A DNA stretch of 64,000 nt from a virus. The notes below the pieces were generated by a model. That model was not told where the DNA came from and made no database searches. It worked only from the letters and a program-made list of their open reading frames with translations. Position 1 is the stretch's first letter. Every line of letters begins with the position of its first letter. Position numbers and translations under genes: made by a program. The DNA is taken from the IMG/VR virus record IMGVR_UViG_3300027706_000007, positions 1-64,000 of that record; one strand, given 5' to 3'. Positions 4,118 through 33,744 of this stretch are shown here, one piece after another.

Positions 4118-4588
4118 TTGCGCGCGCAAACGTATTCTAAACTTTTTTTATTCGCGCTAATTTACGGGTTTGTGTTAATTAACTGGGTCGATTTAATTGG
4201 TGTGGCGCGTGACCCGCTTCACGTATACCATCTATGGCTAATCGCGATGTATTTCGCGCCGTTTTTACCTCTAGTTCTTTTATATGGTGTTAAAGATTTC
4301 AAATTATTTTTAGCTATGGGGCTTTTAACCTCGCTGATGAATGATTTATTTTACTTTTTCGCGAGTTTTGTTCTTATGACGGGCAACTTTACGTGGTCGC
4401 AACTCTGGTCGTTTTACGCGTTCCAACTCGGACTAGATGGTTGGCAGTATAAATGGGTATTTCAGGGCGGCATAATTCAATTTCCAGTTTATAGTTGGCT
4501 AATGGCGCTATCCATATACGCGCGGATTGCAATAGTTATAATTTCTTCTGAGTTATGGATACGTAAATCGAAAATCAAATCTTTATAA
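4118..4588 (+). CDS. Multi-pass membrane protein
   Basis: About four hydrophobic segments; TTG start with upstream TATA. Confidence 0.6.
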   Translation: MRAQTYSKLFLFALIYGFVLINWVDLIGVARDPLHVYHLWLIAMYFAPFLPLVLLYGVKDFKLFLAMGLLTSLMNDLFYFFASFVLMTGNFTWSQLWSFYAFQLGLDGWQYKWVFQGGIIQFPVYSWLMALSIYARIAIVIISSELWIRKSKIKSL

Positions 4589-4631
4589 ATAGAAATCTTT
4601 AAAAATATATTACGTTTAATACTATTTCAGA

Positions 4632-5183
4632 ATGTCTTTTCCATTAGGTGGACTCGCGGTAAAAATTGTCGCGCGAAATCCGTGCAAAATACATATGGTT
4701 GTTGATGAGTGTCCAGATTCGATTGTGGGTGTTTACGAGAACACGAACGACCTTTCAACTAATCAGTTCGCGGGATGGATAATAAATAACATATTAGATA
4801 CAGCGCAAACAATTAAAAATACATCCGGTACAGGTATAGCTGAAACTGTAAATAAGGCTGTTTCCACTCTCACGATTGTTGCGGGCACGGGTACCACGGC
4901 AGCCTCAGTTGCTGATTATACTCTTCAGACTCCTGTTTCTGGTTCTTCAGGTTCGATAGCTGGAACAGTAAGTTACACTGCGCCATCTTCTGGAACATCG
5001 GGGTCTTTCACGGTAACTGGCACAATTACAAATTCCTCGGGCAACACAATAGCATATTCCGAGGTTGGAATGACCATCTCAGATGGAACAAATACGTTTC
5101 TTATAGCTCACGACGTGTTTTCCGCGTTAAATGTCTCAAATGGCGGAACGCTCGCCGTAACATATACAGCAACTTACTCCTAA
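4632..5183 (+). CDS. Putative tail/baseplate structural protein
   Basis: AGTGTTAASVADYTLQTP and SEVGM...LIAHDVF...GGTLAVTY resemble the N-terminal/collar-type domain of phage tail fibres. Confidence 0.55.
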   Translation: MSFPLGGLAVKIVARNPCKIHMVVDECPDSIVGVYENTNDLSTNQFAGWIINNILDTAQTIKNTSGTGIAETVNKAVSTLTIVAGTGTTAASVADYTLQTPVSGSSGSIAGTVSYTAPSSGTSGSFTVTGTITNSSGNTIAYSEVGMTISDGTNTFLIAHDVFSALNVSNGGTLAVTYTATYS

Positions 5184-6887: not shown

Positions 6888-7259
6888 TTGAAAATCTTTT
6901 TATATATCTTATTTCAGAAGGTTTTCGTGTCAACTATATACTTAGACAAAAACGTGATTTTGTTCGAAAATGCGGATGAATCTATCTGCAAACATAAGAA
7001 AAATATAATTAGGGTCAAAAAAGGTTTCACTATAATTTCTTGCGCAAAAACAAAAAACCCAATCGCATTTTATTTCCCAAAAACTTTCACAGTCAGCAAT
7101 GTTATAGATTTTCTAAATGCATCTCTCGATGATTTGGCACTTTTGAATGGAAGTTTTGATAGCGCATATTTGAATAAATTTAGCGCGGCCCTGTTAAAAA
7201 TGAAAAATCTCGAAGTTATTCTACCTACTGAGGACTCACCACAGCGGGCGGTGGGTTGA
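6888..7259 (+). CDS. Hypothetical protein
   Basis: ORF divergent from the Mini-A gene; the true start is probably internal (GTG ~6928). Confidence 0.45.
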   Translation: MKIFLYILFQKVFVSTIYLDKNVILFENADESICKHKKNIIRVKKGFTIISCAKTKNPIAFYFPKTFTVSNVIDFLNASLDDLALLNGSFDSAYLNKFSAALLKMKNLEVILPTEDSPQRAVG

Positions 7260-7785
7260 GAATATCGTATATAATTTCAACATGTAAGTTTTTGATATAA
7301 AGAACAGTACCTAAAGTTTGTACGTTATCTCGCACGGCATCTCCTGTAAATTGCATAAATACATAATTGCGCGCTAGCTGTTTTGCGATTGGCGCGATAA
7401 GTACGTTAAGTAAATTTCGGATTTGGACTTCTATCGCGTAACGTTGTGAAATTGAATAAGCCCAAATCCCGATAATCAGTTTTGCGTACCACCTCTGCCT
7501 TACCGCGGGTATACTTATCCATTTAGCCTCTTGCGTGGTTTGCTGGATATATATAATGGGTCTACCAGTGTTCGCGCCTAAAATCATTTCTCGCGGATAA
7601 GTTGTAACGGCTAAAACGGGCGTACCTGAAACAGGGTCTATAATACGGTTAGAAATTAAATTTGCTAAAAATGAGAGAACATCGATATCTTCGCCTAAAT
7701 TACCAAAAGGTCTGAATACTTGCGCACTAAGACCGAAATTGCTCGTTCCGGAGAAAGACACAAATTCGAGAGACATAAAGTGCAA
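7225..7785 (-). CDS. Putative tail terminator/completion protein
   Basis: Size and the pattern RPIIYI...LIIGIWAYSISQRYAIEVQIRNLL are typical of gp17/gpU-like proteins. Confidence 0.5.
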   Translation of the reverse strand: MHFMSLEFVSFSGTSNFGLSAQVFRPFGNLGEDIDVLSFLANLISNRIIDPVSGTPVLAVTTYPREMILGANTGRPIIYIQQTTQEAKWISIPAVRQRWYAKLIIGIWAYSISQRYAIEVQIRNLLNVLIAPIAKQLARNYVFMQFTGDAVRDNVQTLGTVLYIKNLHVEIIYDILNPPPAVVSPQ

Positions 7786-7871
7786 TAAAAAGCTTTCTGC
7801 GCTAACTTAAATTTAAATCTCTTGCAAAGCTAGTTGCATGATGGAAAAATGAGAAATGCATTATTTAAAAC

Positions 7872-8675
7872 TTACTGCGTTTTTGGCTTGAATTTCGGAG
7901 CGAAATTAGAAATTTTGTTTGGGTCGAGTGGAACATTAGGTTCGGGCGCGGTCAATTGACGTTCTTCTGGCTCCGTAGACATTTCAGATGGTTGCGCGGG
8001 CGCGTCATTAGTCTCTTTTTGCTCATCGCGCAAATCTGGGCGCAAATCATATATGTTACAGCAGCCATCAGGCATATCAGGAATATTTATAGCGCGACAC
8101 CAGTATCCGGTGGGACTATCATCTTTATGTAGAAAATATTCGCAACTTGCACAGTTGAAATGCCCGTTCCAATCTTCTTTACCCTTAAACTCTGGCAACT
8201 CGGCATAGCCATATTCTTCAGCTTGTTTTATGTAATCGCCGCGCCCCGTTTCAGTTAGCACTTTGCGCGTAGCCTTCTTTACATATTCCCCATATTTACC
8301 GCCCTTTTTGCTAGGTTTTTTTGAAGGTTCAATTTTATTTGTTGGAACTTTTTCTTTTGGTTCTGGTTCAGGTTCTTGAATCATACTAGACGAAGTGCTA
8401 CCCGGTGTGGGCGTAAATCCATAATTAACATCAGTATCCAGTCCCTCAGCAGCCGAAGTATCACCCATGCTTGAGACTACTGGCTCTTCTTCTTTCTTTT
8501 TGTTTTTATGATTTTGCTTAAAGTGCTCAGTGGCAATAGCCGCAGCTTCCTCAAGCGTGTTTGGGAAAGCTGAAAAATCGTCTTCATCACATCGAATTAC
8601 ATAGTCATCTGACGCATCTTTATGGAAATATATATGAACCGGCCCCAAAGAATTTAGCCGAACCAATGAAGGCAT
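7872..8675 (-). CDS. Acidic modular protein with a HiPIP-like Cys cluster
   Basis: CASC-x14-C-x11-CC near the C-terminus; Pro/Glu-rich linkers. Confidence 0.55.
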   Translation of the reverse strand: MPSLVRLNSLGPVHIYFHKDASDDYVIRCDEDDFSAFPNTLEEAAAIATEHFKQNHKNKKKEEEPVVSSMGDTSAAEGLDTDVNYGFTPTPGSTSSSMIQEPEPEPKEKVPTNKIEPSKKPSKKGGKYGEYVKKATRKVLTETGRGDYIKQAEEYGYAELPEFKGKEDWNGHFNCASCEYFLHKDDSPTGYWCRAINIPDMPDGCCNIYDLRPDLRDEQKETNDAPAQPSEMSTEPEERQLTAPEPNVPLDPNKISNFAPKFKPKTQ

Positions 8676-14358: not shown

Positions 14359-16386
14359 ATGACTAAAATAATTAGAGAAATTAAACGCGAGACAAACGTA
14401 ACACAAACAACGAGTGGATTGGCAACTTACAATGGAGGGCCACTTTGGCAAACGGGATATAAATGGATAAATATATTTTGGGGTTCTTTCTGGAACGCGC
14501 CAAAAGATTTCACTACCGCACAAGTAGATAAGGCGGTCGCGGATATAGCAACAGACCACTCATACTGGGGAGGTTTACAGGAATATGGAGCATCTGGTGG
14601 AGATATGGGCTACGGTGTATTTGGTAATTCATATATAATTTCACAAGACCCTCCCACAACCATTGATGATAGTGCAATTGGGCCACAGATAAAACAGTGG
14701 GTTGTGTCCGGTACAGTTGCTGACGTAAATGAGAAAGGCGCTTACAACATCTTTTTCCCGCCCGGAGTTACAATAACGTTGCAGGGTTCGTCAAGCTGTT
14801 CCGTCTTTTGCGATTTTCATAACTTCTATAATGATGGCACTAAAAATTATTATTATACAGTTGAACCCTATCCGTGCACGCTTGGTTGCAATCAATGTAC
14901 GGTATCTGCATTTGATACGTTGACACAAGGACTTAGTGAGGAGATGTGTATTTTACCAGAAGAAATTTTGCTTGGTGATAATAAACCGATTTCAGAATAT
15001 GAAATAGGAGATAAAATTGTTGGAATGTCTGGATTGGATACAGTTATAGCTAAATTTAACAGACAATATGATGGAGAACTTATTTCTATTAAAGCACATG
15101 GTATGTTACCTATTATATGTACACCAAATCATCCAATTCTAACTATCGGGGGAATTACCCCAACAAATCATTCAAAACCAATAAGTTACTCTACACCAGA
15201 ATGGAAACATGCAGAATTATTGAAAGAAAAACATACAAACATTAGCGGGAATTATTTATTACTTCCTATAATAGAAGGGGATATAGAAGTTAAAGAAATA
15301 TCATTAGAAAAGTATTTTGAAAATACGGCGCTACTTAAAGCATTAACTATAACAGGAACAACAACACAATTTCCTCTTAATGAAGATACTGCTTGGTTTC
15401 TTGGCTTATATGTTGCTGAAGGCTCAGCAAATTTCAATGATGTTACTCTCGCTTTACATGAAAAAGAAATAGATATTGCAAATAAAGTAAAACTATTATT
15501 AAATAGCTTAGGATACAGAGTTACAATATCTCCAATTAAAAATACTCATGCAATAAGAGTATATATTGGTTCAAGGCATTTGTCTTCTTTCTTAGAAGAG
15601 TTCTGTGGAAAGGGAGCTTTACATAAAAAGATACCTGATTTCATCTTGTATCATAAGAATTTATCCTTAGTACGCGCATTTTTGAACGGATATATTGATG
15701 GTGATGGTTGCCGCTATGTTACCCGAAAGAAATATAAACAAATAATCGTTGAAACTGTCTCTAAAGTTCTAGCATTACAATTACAGTTAGCTTTTGCTCG
15801 ATTGGGGCAATTTTTAGCATTGAGAAAAGGAAAGAAAGGTAAGGAACAATATATTATGGGTCGCCTTTGTCATACACACGATTCTTATCAAGGCTTACTT
15901 TCTAACACAAGTAAAGTAAAGAAAGTAGATAAATATCTTATTTCGCCAATATTATCGATAAAAAGGATACCCTATAAGGGTCAAGTTCGCAACGTTGAAA
16001 CAACAACACACACATATTTAGTATCTAATGCAATAGTACATAATTGTGAGTTGGCTACTGATATGCAGCCCGGCTATGGTTGGGTAATAGGTAATGAAGA
16101 AATTTGCGATTATTGCGATTCCCACTTCGTTTGCCATCAAATCAACTCTGGAGAATATGTAAATGCGTGGTACAGTGGCAAATATAATACTTGTTGGACA
16201 CCAAACTGGCCTCCTTCGAGTCCGTCTCCGCCTCCCCCTTCAACATGCCCAATAGCCAAAATATTTACAGGTACGTATAATACCTTCGCGAAACTTCTTC
16301 ATCGTAAAACGCGATTATTTGCAGTTGTACCAGATGACGTAAAAAATGAAATAGAGAAAGACGATGATTGCGATTGCAATAAGTGA
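14359..16386 (+). CDS. Intein-containing Phi-1/EXORDIUM-like (HExxE-type) putative metallopeptidase
   Basis: Exteins: YNGGP..., IFWG, LQEYG, FFPPG, SCSVFCDFH, then SEEM|CELATD...GW...EICDYC (family consensus SHExxExxTDP...GW...EIGD.C). Confidence 0.7.
   Translation: MTKIIREIKRETNVTQTTSGLATYNGGPLWQTGYKWINIFWGSFWNAPKDFTTAQVDKAVADIATDHSYWGGLQEYGASGGDMGYGVFGNSYIISQDPPTTIDDSAIGPQIKQWVVSGTVADVNEKGAYNIFFPPGVTITLQGSSSCSVFCDFHNFYNDGTKNYYYTVEPYPCTLGCNQCTVSAFDTLTQGLSEEMCILPEEILLGDNKPISEYEIGDKIVGMSGLDTVIAKFNRQYDGELISIKAHGMLPIICTPNHPILTIGGITPTNHSKPISYSTPEWKHAELLKEKHTNISGNYLLLPIIEGDIEVKEISLEKYFENTALLKALTITGTTTQFPLNEDTAWFLGLYVAEGSANFNDVTLALHEKEIDIANKVKLLLNSLGYRVTISPIKNTHAIRVYIGSRHLSSFLEEFCGKGALHKKIPDFILYHKNLSLVRAFLNGYIDGDGCRYVTRKKYKQIIVETVSKVLALQLQLAFARLGQFLALRKGKKGKEQYIMGRLCHTHDSYQGLLSNTSKVKKVDKYLISPILSIKRIPYKGQVRNVETTTHTYLVSNAIVHNCELATDMQPGYGWVIGNEEICDYCDSHFVCHQINSGEYVNAWYSGKYNTCWTPNWPPSSPSPPPPSTCPIAKIFTGTYNTFAKLLHRKTRLFAVVPDDVKNEIEKDDDCDCNK
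14947..16044 (+). mobile_element. Intein with LAGLIDADG homing endonuclease (366 aa)
   Basis: Starts CILPEE; block B CTPNHP; LAGLIDADG motifs LGLYVAEGS and LNGYIDGDG; ends VRNVET..HTYLVSNAIVHN|C. Confidence 0.93.
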
Positions 16387-22208: not shown

Positions 22209-22442
22209 TTGATGAGCGATATCTATAAGACTAACGTAACCTTTTACCAGAAAAGTGATAATTTACAACTTTTTATGGTAAAATCTGAGAATTCTCCGCT
22301 GTCATATATGGTAATTTTCAATGGAGACGAGAAAATCTGTAGTTGTCCAGACTATTTCTTTAGAAAAAATGAATGTAAGCACATAAAAAATGCTACTTTA
22401 TTTTTACAATTAGAGGATGCAATAACGGGGCTGCTTCAATAA
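22209..22442 (+). CDS. SWIM zinc-finger protein
   Basis: CSCPDY...CKHI. Confidence 0.8.
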   Translation: MMSDIYKTNVTFYQKSDNLQLFMVKSENSPLSYMVIFNGDEKICSCPDYFFRKNECKHIKNATLFLQLEDAITGLLQ

Positions 22443-23092
22443 AAGAAAGATTCCAAAGGTAGTGGGAGTAAATCTGATGGTGTTATTTTATTCGCGGCCA
22501 ACAGATAAGCGCGCGCGAGCAAATAATAAAATACGCCAATTGCTCGCGTGTTGAACGTGTTAAACGGAACAATGTAATCAACATGCTCCAAAATTGCGTT
22601 TGAATTGCAACCCGAGTACACAGGTATATGTTGTTTGCTCGCTTCGAGAGCTAGCCGCGCCTCATTTTTGAAATCTTCTTCAGTTATACTTACTGACCTT
22701 TGCGGATTAGCCATATGGAAAACTTCTGGTCTGCCGCGCATGATGTCCATTAAAAGAACTACGCCCGTGTTAGATGAGAGTTGTGGATTAGATAAAATCC
22801 CGGGCAAAACACGCTTAAAAACGGTGTTAACTCCGGTTAGCTGTTTGAATGAGTCTAGTGCGTTCTCCGCATTCGGATGGCTTGAATAAACAAGTACTTC
22901 ATTGGGATTATATTCGTTCAAAACTTTCCCGAGAAGATGTATTCTGCGCAAAATAAAACTGAGTGGAAATATATTCGCGCCATTAACCTGTTCAACATAC
23001 GGACGCATATATCGCGAAACACGAGGTGATGCTATATGCAATCCAAATTCACGTAACTTCTCTTCTGATAATATTTCTGTTATGGATGCCAA
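22436..23092 (-). CDS. rps2: Divergent archaeal-type 30S ribosomal protein uS2
   Basis: GLHIA (GxHIG), MRPYV, RVLPGILSNP (RFxPGxLTNP), EASKQHIPV, VDYIVPFN, YYLLAR, LPLPLESF. Lacks the bacterial coiled-coil insert. Confidence 0.88.
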   Translation of the reverse strand: MASITEILSEEKLREFGLHIASPRVSRYMRPYVEQVNGANIFPLSFILRRIHLLGKVLNEYNPNEVLVYSSHPNAENALDSFKQLTGVNTVFKRVLPGILSNPQLSSNTGVVLLMDIMRGRPEVFHMANPQRSVSITEEDFKNEARLALEASKQHIPVYSGCNSNAILEHVDYIVPFNTFNTRAIGVFYYLLARAYLLAANKITPSDLLPLPLESFFY

Positions 23093-30352: not shown

Positions 30353-30380
30353 GAAACACAATAATAAAATATTCACCAAA

Positions 30381-30396
30381 TGTTTTTTATTTTTTA
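30381..30396 (+). terminator. Oligo-T archaeal-type terminator
   Basis: tgttttttattttttaa after the stop at 30352. Confidence 0.45.
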
Positions 30397-30463
30397 AAAG
30401 CTTTACTGTAAAGTTTAATAGAGAAAAGGTTTAAATATAACAAAATAAAAAATAAAAATTGAT

Positions 30464-30682
30464 ATGTCGTCTGTAAGTCTTTCGATTATATCGTATGCGC
30501 CAATACCCGGAGTTAGGATATTTTACTGGGCGAATCACACTGGTTCGCTTGGTGTACTTTCTACCGGCACGGTTACTGAAAACTGGGCCAACTCCAACAC
30601 GCCAACCTATACCGAATCCCATAGCGGTACTGTAACAGCGTTTGGGTCGGGTGGGTCAGGGCAGGTTCTCTGGACATCCTAA
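30464..30682 (+). CDS. Small Ser/Thr/Gly-rich putative virion protein
   Basis: TATA (tttaaata) about 30 nt upstream. Confidence 0.5.
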   Translation: MSSVSLSIISYAPIPGVRIFYWANHTGSLGVLSTGTVTENWANSNTPTYTESHSGTVTAFGSGGSGQVLWTS

Positions 30683-30729
30683 GCGCTACAAAATATTTAA
30701 ATAAAACGTTTTTATATTTCCTTTTACGT

Positions 30730-33204
30730 ATGTCTAATAATCAGTCTCCTTATCCGTACGCACAAGTTCTTGAAGTAAATCAACCTTCTGGGTCACTTCC
30801 CCCTGAACAGCAACCACCTCAAAAAGAACCTCCCACAAGAGAGCCGTCTCCTGAACTGCCGCCAAAAGAGCCGCCAGAAAAAGAACCCGAACCAGAAAAA
30901 TCGTCATCATCGTTTGAGGTTCCGCGGAAAATAAGAATACCCGATAGGTTAGCGAATGATGTAAAAATTTTGGCGGAATATGCAATTAAGACTGATGGAG
31001 AAGCGGGAGGTTTCTTGGTAATTGGATTGCATGGAAATGTCGGGGTTATCTCAGAACAATTGGGAGAAAACCGCGAGATTGTGCTAAAACCGAATGAAAA
31101 ATTACATGAGGGAGAATTATATATAGGAACTGTTCACTCACACCCTGTATGCGTAATAGGAGATTTTGTTTTGATAGAAACGGAACGAGGTCGTATTCCT
31201 ATAAAGGATGTAAGAGTAGGAGATTCGGTATTATCATATGGTGGTGTTTATCGCAAAGTAATCGACAAGATAACTTTCCCATACAGAGGAAAACAAACAA
31301 CTGTGACAATTGATTTAAGAAAGCCGAAGGAACATAAGTTTCAAAAACTTACGACAACTTTCAACCACCCATATAGGATTTTTAGAGAAGGAAAAGAGCT
31401 TTGGGTACTTGCTGAAGAACTTAGAATAGGAGACGAAATATTTGTCCCGGAATATCTACTCAATTTCTGTCTAGTTTGTAAAAAACCGATAAATAACATC
31501 AGCCAATATTGTTCTAGAAAATGCCGTTTTATTCACAATTATAATCCAAAAAATCCAAGCGAAAAATGCTTTTATTGTGGAAAACAAATCTCTGGTCGCT
31601 ATCCATATAATAAAAAGTATTGTTCTTTGAGTTGCCACATGAAAGATGCTCATCAAAAAGGACTAGTTCCTATTCACAAGTTTGACAATTTTAATCCAGA
31701 ATTCCAAAGAAAAGCCAAATTAGCAAGATTCAAAACAGCAAAGGGAGGAAGTCGTTGGGAGCGCGTTGTTTTTGATTATTTAAAAAAGATGGGCGTGACT
31801 GGACTTGAGAAACAATATCCTGTTCAAATTGGAACGTATACTACCTATGCTGGAAAACGAACTATACCTAGATTCATTTTTATGGATATTGCTATTCCAG
31901 AACGAAAGATTGACATTGAGATAGACGGCGAATTATGGCACAGAATGAGAAAAGAAGAAGATGAACAACGAGATAAGAAGCTCGAAGAAATGGGCTGGAC
32001 AGTTATTCGAATTCCTGCTCGTCAAGTAGCTTCTAACGCATTTAGTGAAATTCTTGCTCCCTTATTTAACATCCCTCTTCTTGCAGACCCCCCAATTAAT
32101 TTTGTTAAAATACCCATATTGAAAGTTGAAACTAAGACAGCTTCTCATGCACATGCTATAGGATTAACAATAGAAGGAAATAACTATGATGAAAATTCGG
32201 TAGTAACTAACGGAATTCTAACTCATAACACAGATTTACAATCGACTGGCGACGTTATTAGTTTTCTCGCGGATGAAAAAGAGAAAGTAATGCTCGTTAC
32301 GGGCGCGGATAGTTCAATTAATATTTCATTCAAAACACAATTTACAAAAGAAGGCGATTTCTCACGAGATATACGCGAGCATTTCAAACAAAAAGATATG
32401 TTAGAAATGTCGAAAATATATGGATTTTTGTGGTATCGCGGAGAAAATTTCTCAACCGAATTGGAATTACAAACAAAAGAACTTGGCGAGTTAAAGTTGC
32501 AACCCATAGAAGAAACGTGGAATATAGAAGATTTGCTAGAAGCGCTCGATATTAAAGGCTCGCCCGAGTTGCCAAATGATTATTCAACAAAGAAGTATCC
32601 GAAGAAATCTAAGCAAGATGAATCGCGTGGAATGACTCAACTCGAATTAAAACATTATATGGATAACTCATTTAAATTGCTCTCGGATATTGAAGAAGGT
32701 TACGCTAGCGCGGGAGGATTTAGTAGAGATATGGCTACGCGGATAGCTAACACATTTCCTAAGTGGATAAATTCTCTCAATCGTGTTCTAGAAGGCGTTG
32801 ATGACCCCGAGTTATATAAGCGCGCGATAGAATTACTAGACCGAATACAAAATGTTTATGGGCTTGCGGTCGATACGCTTGGTGGAAAAACGATGGTCGA
32901 AGATTATAGCGATGTCGCGGAAAATTTGTTAACCAGATTACGTCCTAAACTTCAAAAACTATTTAATGAGCTAAATTATCTAGAGTCTATATACTCAAAA
33001 CAGGGCTATTTCGATTCTAAAGAGTTAAACTACATTCTGTCCGATTTTCCCGAAATGGTGGAGTTAATTAATAAATTGAATTTCGAGAAAATAGATAACG
33101 CGACCGCTTCAAAACTTTTTGAAGCAGTTGAACGCGCGTCAAGTCTTTATAATTTAGCACTGGCTCAAACACAAGAACGTGACCCATTAGTCGAAGAGAA
33201 ATAA
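30730..33204 (+). CDS. Intein-containing JAB/JAMM (MPN+) metalloprotease with Pro-rich N-terminus and two helical C-terminal repeats
   Basis: E in DGEAGG; after splicing HSHPV|TDLQSTGD = HxH...SxxD. Confidence 0.8.
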   Translation: MSNNQSPYPYAQVLEVNQPSGSLPPEQQPPQKEPPTREPSPELPPKEPPEKEPEPEKSSSSFEVPRKIRIPDRLANDVKILAEYAIKTDGEAGGFLVIGLHGNVGVISEQLGENREIVLKPNEKLHEGELYIGTVHSHPVCVIGDFVLIETERGRIPIKDVRVGDSVLSYGGVYRKVIDKITFPYRGKQTTVTIDLRKPKEHKFQKLTTTFNHPYRIFREGKELWVLAEELRIGDEIFVPEYLLNFCLVCKKPINNISQYCSRKCRFIHNYNPKNPSEKCFYCGKQISGRYPYNKKYCSLSCHMKDAHQKGLVPIHKFDNFNPEFQRKAKLARFKTAKGGSRWERVVFDYLKKMGVTGLEKQYPVQIGTYTTYAGKRTIPRFIFMDIAIPERKIDIEIDGELWHRMRKEEDEQRDKKLEEMGWTVIRIPARQVASNAFSEILAPLFNIPLLADPPINFVKIPILKVETKTASHAHAIGLTIEGNNYDENSVVTNGILTHNTDLQSTGDVISFLADEKEKVMLVTGADSSINISFKTQFTKEGDFSRDIREHFKQKDMLEMSKIYGFLWYRGENFSTELELQTKELGELKLQPIEETWNIEDLLEALDIKGSPELPNDYSTKKYPKKSKQDESRGMTQLELKHYMDNSFKLLSDIEEGYASAGGFSRDMATRIANTFPKWINSLNRVLEGVDDPELYKRAIELLDRIQNVYGLAVDTLGGKTMVEDYSDVAENLLTRLRPKLQKLFNELNYLESIYSKQGYFDSKELNYILSDFPEMVELINKLNFEKIDNATASKLFEAVERASSLYNLALAQTQERDPLVEEK
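31150..32229 (+). mobile_element. Intein with Zn fingers and a DUF559/Vsr-like endonuclease (360 aa)
   Basis: Starts CVIGD..IETERG; block B TFNHP; CxxC..YCSxxC twice; MDIAIP..KIDIEIDGELWH...RD..LEEMGWTVIRI; ends GILTHN|T. Confidence 0.9.
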
Positions 33205-33252: not shown

Positions 33253-33744
33253 TTGAGCGCGAGCGGAGAAGTTTCTTTATCAACGACAGCTTCAATAGGT
33301 GGTACCTATTATCTAAATACAGAAAGTTCCGTATCTTTAACCGCGTCAATTATAGGTCAAAATCCGCCCGGGCAAATTCAAATAAATAACATATCTTTTA
33401 ACGTAAAATCATTTCAAATTTCTAAAGCCGCGAAATATAGAATTTATAGATTGCCTGCGTATGGGTATAGTACCCCATCCGGATTCACGTATGCAAAATC
33501 GTATTCAGATTCAATACTTATGCTCGGAGCATCCAATCGCGTATTTACTTTAACATTTGAAATTATTTCTTCCGCGCAATTAGAAAGTCTTCTTCAGCAA
33601 TTTCAAGCTCCCAGTTTGCAGTTATCAGAAGTGGACGGTACATTACATTTAGTCGCAGTTAAAGATATACAATCAATAACATTCACGGGTGGACTCGTGC
33701 AAATATACGAGGTTCAAGTCGAATTTGTTGAATTAAACGCGTAG
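33253..33744 (+). CDS. Putative distal-tail (Dit-like) protein
   Basis: LGASNRVFTLTF...YEVQVEFVEL pattern; directly upstream of the giant tail protein. Confidence 0.5.
   Translation: MSASGEVSLSTTASIGGTYYLNTESSVSLTASIIGQNPPGQIQINNISFNVKSFQISKAAKYRIYRLPAYGYSTPSGFTYAKSYSDSILMLGASNRVFTLTFEIISSAQLESLLQQFQAPSLQLSEVDGTLHLVAVKDIQSITFTGGLVQIYEVQVEFVELNA

Follow-up and report, generated by a model that had tools for sequence, protein, structure and literature searches.

An intein with an in-frame Vsr-like endonuclease very probably interrupts the metal-binding motif of a viral JAMM/MPN+ protease

We analysed the first 64 kb (the window hereafter; positions 1 to 64,000) of a linear 94,123-bp virus record in IMG/VR, IMGVR_UViG_3300027706_000007, whose estimated completeness is 68%. 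An open reading frame (ORF) on the plus strand at 30730..33204 encodes 824 amino acids (aa) plus a stop codon and holds an N-extein, an intein and a C-extein in a single frame; this 824-aa protein is present on six contigs in public collections, the longest of them 94,123 bp. In our view the product of the ORF is very probably a viral JAMM/MPN+ zinc metalloprotease in precursor form, interrupted by a mobile class-1 intein with an in-frame Vsr-like homing endonuclease. Its layout is given below, where L002 denotes an IMG/VR contig encoding a 467-aa intein-free homologue and where pLDDT stands for a structural model's predicted local distance difference test score.

30730..33204, plus strand: the precursor ORF, from the ORF list and its translation
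30730..30900, plus strand: N-terminal Pro/Glu-rich linker, variable, aa 1–57; the alignment to L002 begins at aa 58
30901..31149, plus strand: N-terminal part of the predicted MPN/JAMM domain, aa 58–140, with 58% identity to L002 243–325
31000-31002, plus strand: predicted catalytic glutamate E91 in DGEAGG, equivalent to invariant E34 of the family alignment
31135-31143, plus strand: predicted zinc ligands H136 and H138, equivalent to invariant H79 and H81 of the family alignment
31150..32229, plus strand: predicted class-1 intein, 360 aa, from its boundary residues, its absence from 16 homologous loci and its Hint fold
31150..31449, plus strand: N-terminal Hint lobe (blocks A and B), from a weak Pfam PT-HINT match, pLDDT of 83–91 and structural matches
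31465..31635, plus strand: Zn-ribbon modules at 31465-31524 and at 31564-31635, putatively the part of the homing endonuclease that binds DNA
31747..32079, plus strand: Vsr-like/EDxHD-type (DUF559) nuclease domain, in frame, from Pfam DUF559 and structural matches
32080..32229, plus strand: C-terminal Hint lobe (blocks F and G) ending in ...NGILTHN, from boundary residues and a structural match
32230..32601, plus strand: C-terminal part of the predicted MPN/JAMM domain, aa 501–624, with 54% identity to L002 326–450
32602..33201, plus strand: C-terminal extension of about 200 aa, specific to the window's virus and without an L002 counterpart by tblastn

The junction sequences HSHPV|C and HN|T fall at aa 136–141 and aa 499–501 of the precursor, respectively, which places the insert at nucleotides (nt) 31150-32229. 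Joining V140 to T501 generates H136-S-H138-PVTDLQ-S505-TG-D508, which has the form HxH-x6-S-xx-D. The original prediction, made from the letters of the window, had proposed that an intein splits a JAMM motif and that removing exactly these nucleotides rebuilds it, and its coordinates proved exact. The L002 homologue reads ...GTVHMHPV-TPTASTGD... across the site and aligns to both window segments (aa 58–140 and 501–624) with no gap, and a further 15 viral loci on other IMG/VR contigs are uninterrupted at V|T. Because all 16 intein-free homologues are contiguous at this position, the 360 residues represent a precise in-frame insertion between V and T. The segment following the insert carries the +1 residue Thr501, Ser505, the zinc ligand Asp508 and a conserved glutamate (invariant family columns S88, D91 and E101 for the last three). 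The residues required of a class-1 intein are complete, comprising Cys141 (Cys1), T210-F-N-H213 (TxxH), H499-N500 and the +1 Thr501, and the block B residues T70 and H73 (intein numbering) are invariant in a four-sequence alignment.

An AlphaFold model of the intein, built from that four-sequence alignment, has a mean pLDDT of 69; the Hint and nuclease parts are modelled at 80–91, while the Zn-ribbon and linker part is poor, with low values from intein aa 130. When the model was compared with 48,161 PDB representatives using VIA, the terminal lobes best matched the gp41-1 intein (6riz; Z 19.3, root-mean-square deviation (rmsd) 1.4 Å, 125 aa), and about 28 intein or Hint chains, each spanning model residues 1..360, were found at Z of at least 11.8. 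The top Foldseek matches are inteins throughout, and a word-index homology search with the intein recovered the window's own cluster only. The predicted element shares with class-1 inteins such as gp41-1, DnaB, VMA and PI-PfuI the Hint fold (Z 19.3–13), the Cys1/TxxH/HN/+1 Thr signature, a position within a catalytic motif and, lodged between the Hint lobes, a homing endonuclease. It departs from the class-1 inteins of phage and archaeal proteins in its extein, a JAMM/MPN+ protease, and in an endonuclease that is neither LAGLIDADG nor HNH. PT-HINT gives the best Pfam Hint match and the close structures include a BIL domain, as would be expected if the insert were a non-splicing Hint/BIL-type autoprocessing domain that cleaves without ligating, so that the protein would end as two pieces lacking a working JAMM site. 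We regard this as highly improbable, given that all of the class-1 splicing residues are in place, that comparison with 16 uninterrupted homologues shows the insert to be exact and in frame, with conserved catalytic residues on either side of it, and that sister alleles with and without an intein (described below) are otherwise identical.

In the precursor, the metal site would remain unbuilt for as long as the intein parts the two zinc-binding histidines from the serine and aspartate. The model of the L002 core (see below) positions the insertion point after a strand that bears the two histidines (E73-80) and before a helix that bears the aspartate (H89-97). Because the intein divides the histidine pair (HSHPV) from the Ser/Asp half (TDLQSTGD), this model implies that the precursor could not assemble the zinc site, in keeping with the earlier suggestion that activity depends on splicing. 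Splicing would proceed through an N–S shift at Cys141, attack by Thr501 and cyclisation of Asn500, and would join V140 to T501 to yield a 464-aa protease.

The same earlier reading had placed two Zn modules and a Vsr/DUF559-type nuclease, as opposed to a LAGLIDADG enzyme, between the Hint lobes, and both assignments are supported. The Zn-ribbon modules (CxxC...CxxxC) lie at precursor aa 246–265 and 279–302, and the first module alone is conserved among homologous inteins. Pfam DUF559 matches aa 384–436 with 28.1–29.8 bits against a gathering score of 20.6. Intein residues 199–308 superpose on the catalytic domain of I-Bth0305I (3r3p_B; Z 11.5, rmsd 2.2 Å, 90/98 residues), on E. coli Vsr (1cw0_A; Z 10.5) and on a DUF559 protein (3hrl_A; Z 10.4); a single-sequence search of the PDB with the nuclease returned noise only. 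The predicted domain thus has the nuclease fold and DUF559/Vsr signature of the EDxHD or Vsr-like endonucleases exemplified by I-Bth0305I (3R3P). The region ahead of it resembles the N-terminal, DNA-binding parts of free-standing phage homing endonucleases, and intein aa 106–197 match phrog_1271 (‘HNH endonuclease’) at 7e-13. The block D..K.DIE.DGE..H...D..RD..L...GW..IRIP is conserved in three homologous inteins whose overall identity is 31–36%, and the nuclease block is their best-conserved part (three-way identity 26%), which argues for selection on endonuclease function.

Vsr-like (EDxHD) endonucleases have been described as free-standing genes between the halves of split inteins and in group I introns (PMC2677866, Dassa et al. 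2009; PMC3239194), as well as antisense within actinophage inteins (bioRxiv 10.1101/2025.01.02.630785), and the last of these, a 2025 preprint, states that there are no other intein-associated reports. As the known settings are free-standing, in a group I intron or antisense, the copy studied here, which is translated in frame within a contiguous intein, is a variant undescribed in the literature that we found. A DUF559/EDxHD gene is named, ambiguously, under ‘intein-containing genes’ in a report of a cyanobacterial genome (PMC9403480). Within one viral cluster of the ESM Atlas, which we treat as a lead only, 98% of the proteins carry DUF559 and 47% carry Intein_splicing, suggesting that other in-frame DUF559 inteins exist unreported in databases. 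A related 87-kb virus carries within its head module (L020:12074-12763, plus strand) a free-standing homing-endonuclease gene that combines NUMOD3 with Vsr/DUF559, the nuclease type of the window's intein, and this gene is a possible source of the in-frame domain.

The host protein was placed in a family by an exhaustive HMMER search of 1.84 billion proteins seeded with the 208-aa intein-free core of L002, and this search was the sole route by which the family was reached. It returned 46 matches, one of them spurious, giving a family of about 45 clusters; P0023, a protein of 3125 aa with 13 matched stretches, was rejected as a member and is a eukaryote-type repeat protein. A 32-sequence alignment, in which identity falls as low as 21%, has invariant columns at E34, G55, G76, H79, H81, S88, D91 and E101. 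The full JAMM catalytic set is among them, its columns being invariant in 32 and in 39 sequences, and E34 corresponds to the upstream glutamate of DGEAGG (E91 of the precursor) that the original prediction had singled out. Pfam Prok-JAB is matched at E ≤ 0.01 by 18 of the 32 members (best 1.6e-6), with the intein-free allele in L003 scoring 25.0 bits, which is exactly the gathering score. The family profile matched, weakly, Cap3 (9ild, E 0.005) and an archaeal Rpn11 homologue in the PDB, and a single-sequence PDB search with the JAB core gave noise only.

The MPN fold was modelled with AlphaFold on the intein-free L002 core, standing in for the spliced product of the window (pLDDT 92.8, predicted template modelling score 0.90). 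Foldseek matched this model to AMSH, AMSH-LP, Sst2, PfJAMM1, Cap3, the Jab1/MPN domain of Prp8 and Rpn11, with a probability of about 1.0 for AMSH, Sst2, PfJAMM1 and Cap3. All 50 matches listed by VIA are MPN proteins (Z 8.8–7.3) that align over model residues ~3–185, and the named MPN/JAMM structures matched include AF2198, PfJAMM1, Cap3, Rpn11, AMSH and CSN5. The MPN/JAMM assignment follows from the fold, the uniform match list and the invariant motif in combination. We also considered whether the conserved region past core residue 125 forms a separate ubiquitin-like domain and rejected this, as the alignments to MPN structures extend to model residue 185.

No homologue of the JAB core was found by tblastn in 50,697 isolate phage genomes, and the prokaryote reference genomes scanned contained no cellular or proviral copy of the L002 core. 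A word-index homology search and an IMG/VR pattern scan with the C-extein gave no matches, nor did an IMG/VR pattern scan with P0018, one of the intein-bearing members listed below. On the alignments and predicted structure, we take the host protein to be a member of a new, purely viral JAMM/MPN+ family. It would share the MPN fold and the E...HxH-x6-S-xx-D motif with prokaryotic and archaeal JAMM/MPN+ proteins (AF2198, PfJAMM1, Caldiarchaeum Rpn11 and CBASS Cap3). The family differs from these in being separate and viral, with a core of about 200 aa, a G-I/V-x-G...P...KK tail and variable N- and C-terminal extensions. The region corresponding to precursor aa 1–57 is not conserved, holding Zn-ribbons or nothing in relatives, and the C-terminal extension of the window protein has a sub-threshold Pfam match only. 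That its C-terminal 200 aa might be encoded downstream of the shorter L002 gene was ruled out by tblastn. The tail L..G-(I/V)-x-G....P......KK (window 32530-32601, aa 601–624) is conserved and follows the last MPN helix. Many family members stop a few residues past it and the window protein runs on for 200 aa, and we wondered whether the tail could be an autoprocessing or docking site.

Several points weigh against the overall assignment. We read splicing, the cutting of DNA, zinc binding and peptidase activity from sequence and from models in every case. Pfam Prok-JAB (PF14464) reaches only 11.7–14.4 bits against a threshold of 25 on the window protein (E 0.04–0.24), in which the domain is split by the intein. 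The JAB assignment was consequently made via the family profile and structure prediction, so that of the JAB identity first proposed, what stands is the MPN/JAMM result from the family profile and the L002 model, and not a direct match to Prok-JAB. The Z-scores of 7–9 to MPN structures are moderate and, according to the tool's own caveat, such values alone can be common. Finally, intein-free alleles were found as 16 homologous loci, although none is near-identical to the window's own gene, leaving recent mobility of the window's copy unsupported.

Inteins are present in 4 of the ~45 family clusters and occupy three sites (a, b and c) in the sequence G-T-(a)-V-H-(b)-x-H-P-V-(c)-T, all of them inside one six-residue stretch of the JAMM motif. 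This clustering, together with a motif that is invariant in 32 members, bears out the earlier expectation that invasion by an intein marks a conserved and important site. The inteins found at each site are as follows.

Site a, P0005: 354 aa, LAGLIDADG endonuclease, +1 Cys
Site b, P0018: 364 aa, Zn ribbon and DUF559, +1 Thr
Site b, P0038: 382 aa, Zn ribbon and DUF559, +1 Cys
Site c, window and P0009: 360 aa, Zn ribbon and DUF559, +1 Thr

The site-b and site-c inteins are 31–34% identical, compared with 36.5% between the two site-b inteins, and have a common order of Hint-N, Zn ribbon, helical linker, DUF559, DPP(I/V)xF and Hint-C. By sequence comparison they are homologous, despite being inserted four codons apart. 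When the spliced P0038 protein is compared with the intein-free allele in L003, six differences are seen, all located from -1 to +21 of the junction, with 0/225 elsewhere (Fisher p 5e-6, in a protein-level comparison). This is the expected pattern for co-conversion during homing, or for precise loss. As these two alleles differ next to the junction alone, we regard the pattern as a sign of recent mobility of the site-b intein. During co-infection, the endonuclease would cut intein-free alleles and recombination would then copy the intein in, a step supported by conservation of the nuclease block and by the co-conversion-like tract of the sister allele pair.

It is conceivable, if unlikely, that the window's intein splices yet is a fixed and immobile remnant with a dead nuclease, inherited only vertically. 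The copies on record of the window's allele are two and near-identical, P0009 being the sole other one with an intein 99% identical, and no close intein-free allele of this gene was found among the loci collected. The first Zn ribbon of P0009 has three substitutions, one of which replaces a Cys ligand with Ser, and the Zn-ribbon and linker part is modelled at low confidence. Against an immobile remnant stand the nuclease block, which is the best-conserved part of three inteins only 31–36% identical and is confidently modelled as a Vsr/EDxHD fold, and the homologous site-b intein, with its co-conversion-like tract relative to an otherwise identical intein-free allele. We therefore favour a mobile intein with a functional endonuclease. 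In P0009, 18 aa are also missing from the first MPN strand region.

Other mobile nucleases are found beside intein-free JAB genes. In L002, homing-endonuclease-like ORFs (2433-2807 and 4231-4689), which are HNH-like by eye and have no Pfam match, flank the gene, and in L003 a NUMOD3 protein is encoded directly upstream of it (6991-8004). It seems that the JAB locus attracts mobile nucleases even without an intein.

We then considered the function of the protease from its genomic surroundings. A portal gene lies ~1.4–5 kb from JAB in the window and in 16 of the 16 loci that hold both genes. The gene order in L020 is portal (with two putative inteins), small ORFs, JAB, a 468-aa ORF, cement protein and major capsid protein, and 3 kb separate the JAB gene of L003 from the capsid gene downstream of it. 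Because the gene stays near the portal, and in two lineages lies between portal and capsid genes, we rank first a protein that takes part in virion morphogenesis, or a peptidase or isopeptidase associated with the virion, an assignment in which we place somewhat less than even confidence. Among the nearest BFVD structures are several ‘minor capsid proteins’ of uncultured siphoviruses that contain MPN. Searches of the incomplete record for an S78 or ClpP-type prohead protease were negative. The morphogenesis reading is nevertheless weak. The capsid gene of the window's genome is 60 kb from JAB; in L002-type loci JAB abuts ORFs that are primase-like, RPA-like and ATPase-like, as read from sequence alone; and PHROGs contains no family for the JAB core, nor a related family with a functional label. 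The sole positive clue to function is portal proximity with, in two lineages, a head-module position upstream of the capsid gene, and the morphogenesis role that had been raised at the outset is otherwise unsupported.

The host of the virus is probably archaeal, because the record encodes a uS2-like protein of the archaeal/eukaryotic type, a Hef/Xpf-like ERCC4 nuclease and PolB. The uS2-like protein (window 22436-23092, minus strand) scores 83 bits with NCBIfam uS2_euk_arch (equivalog cut-off 211) and 28 bits with the bacterial model; both values are below the curated cut-offs and the protein is divergent. The TerL protein has at most 27% identity to those of isolate phages.

A second possible function, to which we give distinctly less credence, is that of a counter-defence isopeptidase stripping ubiquitin-like (Ubl) conjugates of the host, whether archaeal SAMP/Urm1/Ub-like or bacterial Bil or CBASS Cap2-type. 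In its favour are an intact catalytic motif, the purely viral make-up of the family, and the presence of Ubl-specific JAMMs (PfJAMM1-SAMP2, Caldiarchaeum Rpn11-Ub, Cap3 and BubCD) among the nearest solved structures, but a common fold does not fix the substrate. In contrast with known JAMM/MPN+ systems, no Ubl, E1 or E2 partner was found in the 94-kb record, a search that covered ThiF/E1, ThiS-type and ubiquitin-type genes. Matches to the defence JABs of PADLOC (Cap3-type and BilC) are marginal, with E ≥ 1e-3 (best 1.2e-3) and for single members only. The gene is moreover linked to structural genes, and not to recognisable early or anti-defence genes. The deconjugation of host Ubl marks proposed in the original prediction thus finds no support here.

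Ranked third, and improbable in our estimation, is a tail-assembly JAB like lambda gpK that would act on tail-tip or fibre components, as had also been suggested. In the window, JAB follows an AT-rich gap of 378 nt and opens a co-directional run with a 163-aa ORF (33253-33744) and a 2128-aa fibre/adhesin-like ORF, an order recalling the K-I-J genes of lambda. Like gpK, which combines MPN with NlpC/P60, the product would be a phage-encoded MPN protein, and it is encoded just upstream of a very large fibre-like gene. In contrast to gpK, the window protein has no NlpC/P60 domain by Pfam, and no match to a PHROG tail family was found. The neighbourhood is also not conserved in the relatives examined: beside JAB, the portal and ORF 27637 alone of the window's neighbours recur in related loci, and the JAB neighbours in L002, L003, L008 and L020 are different genes.

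Taking the virion role and the insertion sites together, we offer a broader and speculative picture, which we think has a low likelihood of being right in full. The JAMM family would serve as a morphogenesis or capsid-delivered protease of probably archaeal tailed viruses, replacing or supplementing prohead proteases, and the zinc-site loop would be a recurrent landing pad on which one lineage of Vsr-type inteins has moved by four codons. Were this so, a viral protease would depend on splicing as an obligatory part of its activation, and the locus would offer a natural case of a homing element shifting its target site.

Inteins, EDxHD homing endonucleases and JAMM proteases are each known; what is new is the extein class, the in-frame Vsr-type endonuclease and the three nested sites. 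We found no report of a JAMM/MPN+ protease as an intein host in the literature searched. The predicted element would thereby add to intein biology a class of host protein that is no nucleotide-handling enzyme, and a contiguous intein with an in-frame Vsr-like (EDxHD) endonuclease would be the end point that the ‘fractured gene’ model predicts. Three nested sites, two of them with homologous inteins, provide a natural system in which to examine how homing elements change target position. For virology, the analysis brings to light a JAMM protease family that is new, linked to the portal and found in uncultured viruses alone, and a splicing-gated metalloprotease with a new Thr+1 intein could be of interest to protein engineers.

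Further inteins are found in the window and its relatives. A second intein-containing ORF in the window (14359-16386, plus strand; 675 aa) matches Pfam LAGLIDADG_3 at 7e-15; its NCBIfam matches are to intein-containing models only, and its host protein has no family match. The portal of the related 87-kb virus (L020:1557-5942, plus strand) is 1461 aa long; compared with the window portal it has two insertions, one of them LAGLIDADG-like, that divide the alignment into three blocks, pointing to two inteins in portal genes of this clade. L004, a 122-kb viral contig (4090-6213, 7203-8420, 8735-10402), has a mini-intein in TerL and also a gene broken between a Hint-N lobe with a Zn ribbon, which shares 30% identity with the window's intein, and a Hint-C lobe. 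The latter opens the next ORF, which itself holds a further LAGLIDADG intein, and the broken gene resembles a relative of the window's intein type that has fractured or is decaying. Lastly, the AT-rich gap ahead of the precursor ORF (30353-30729) contains the elements TTTAAATA and TTTTTATAT at most 45 nt from the ATG. These are possible archaeal TATA boxes for a leaderless transcript that would open the unit of JAB, the 163-aa ORF and the giant ORF.

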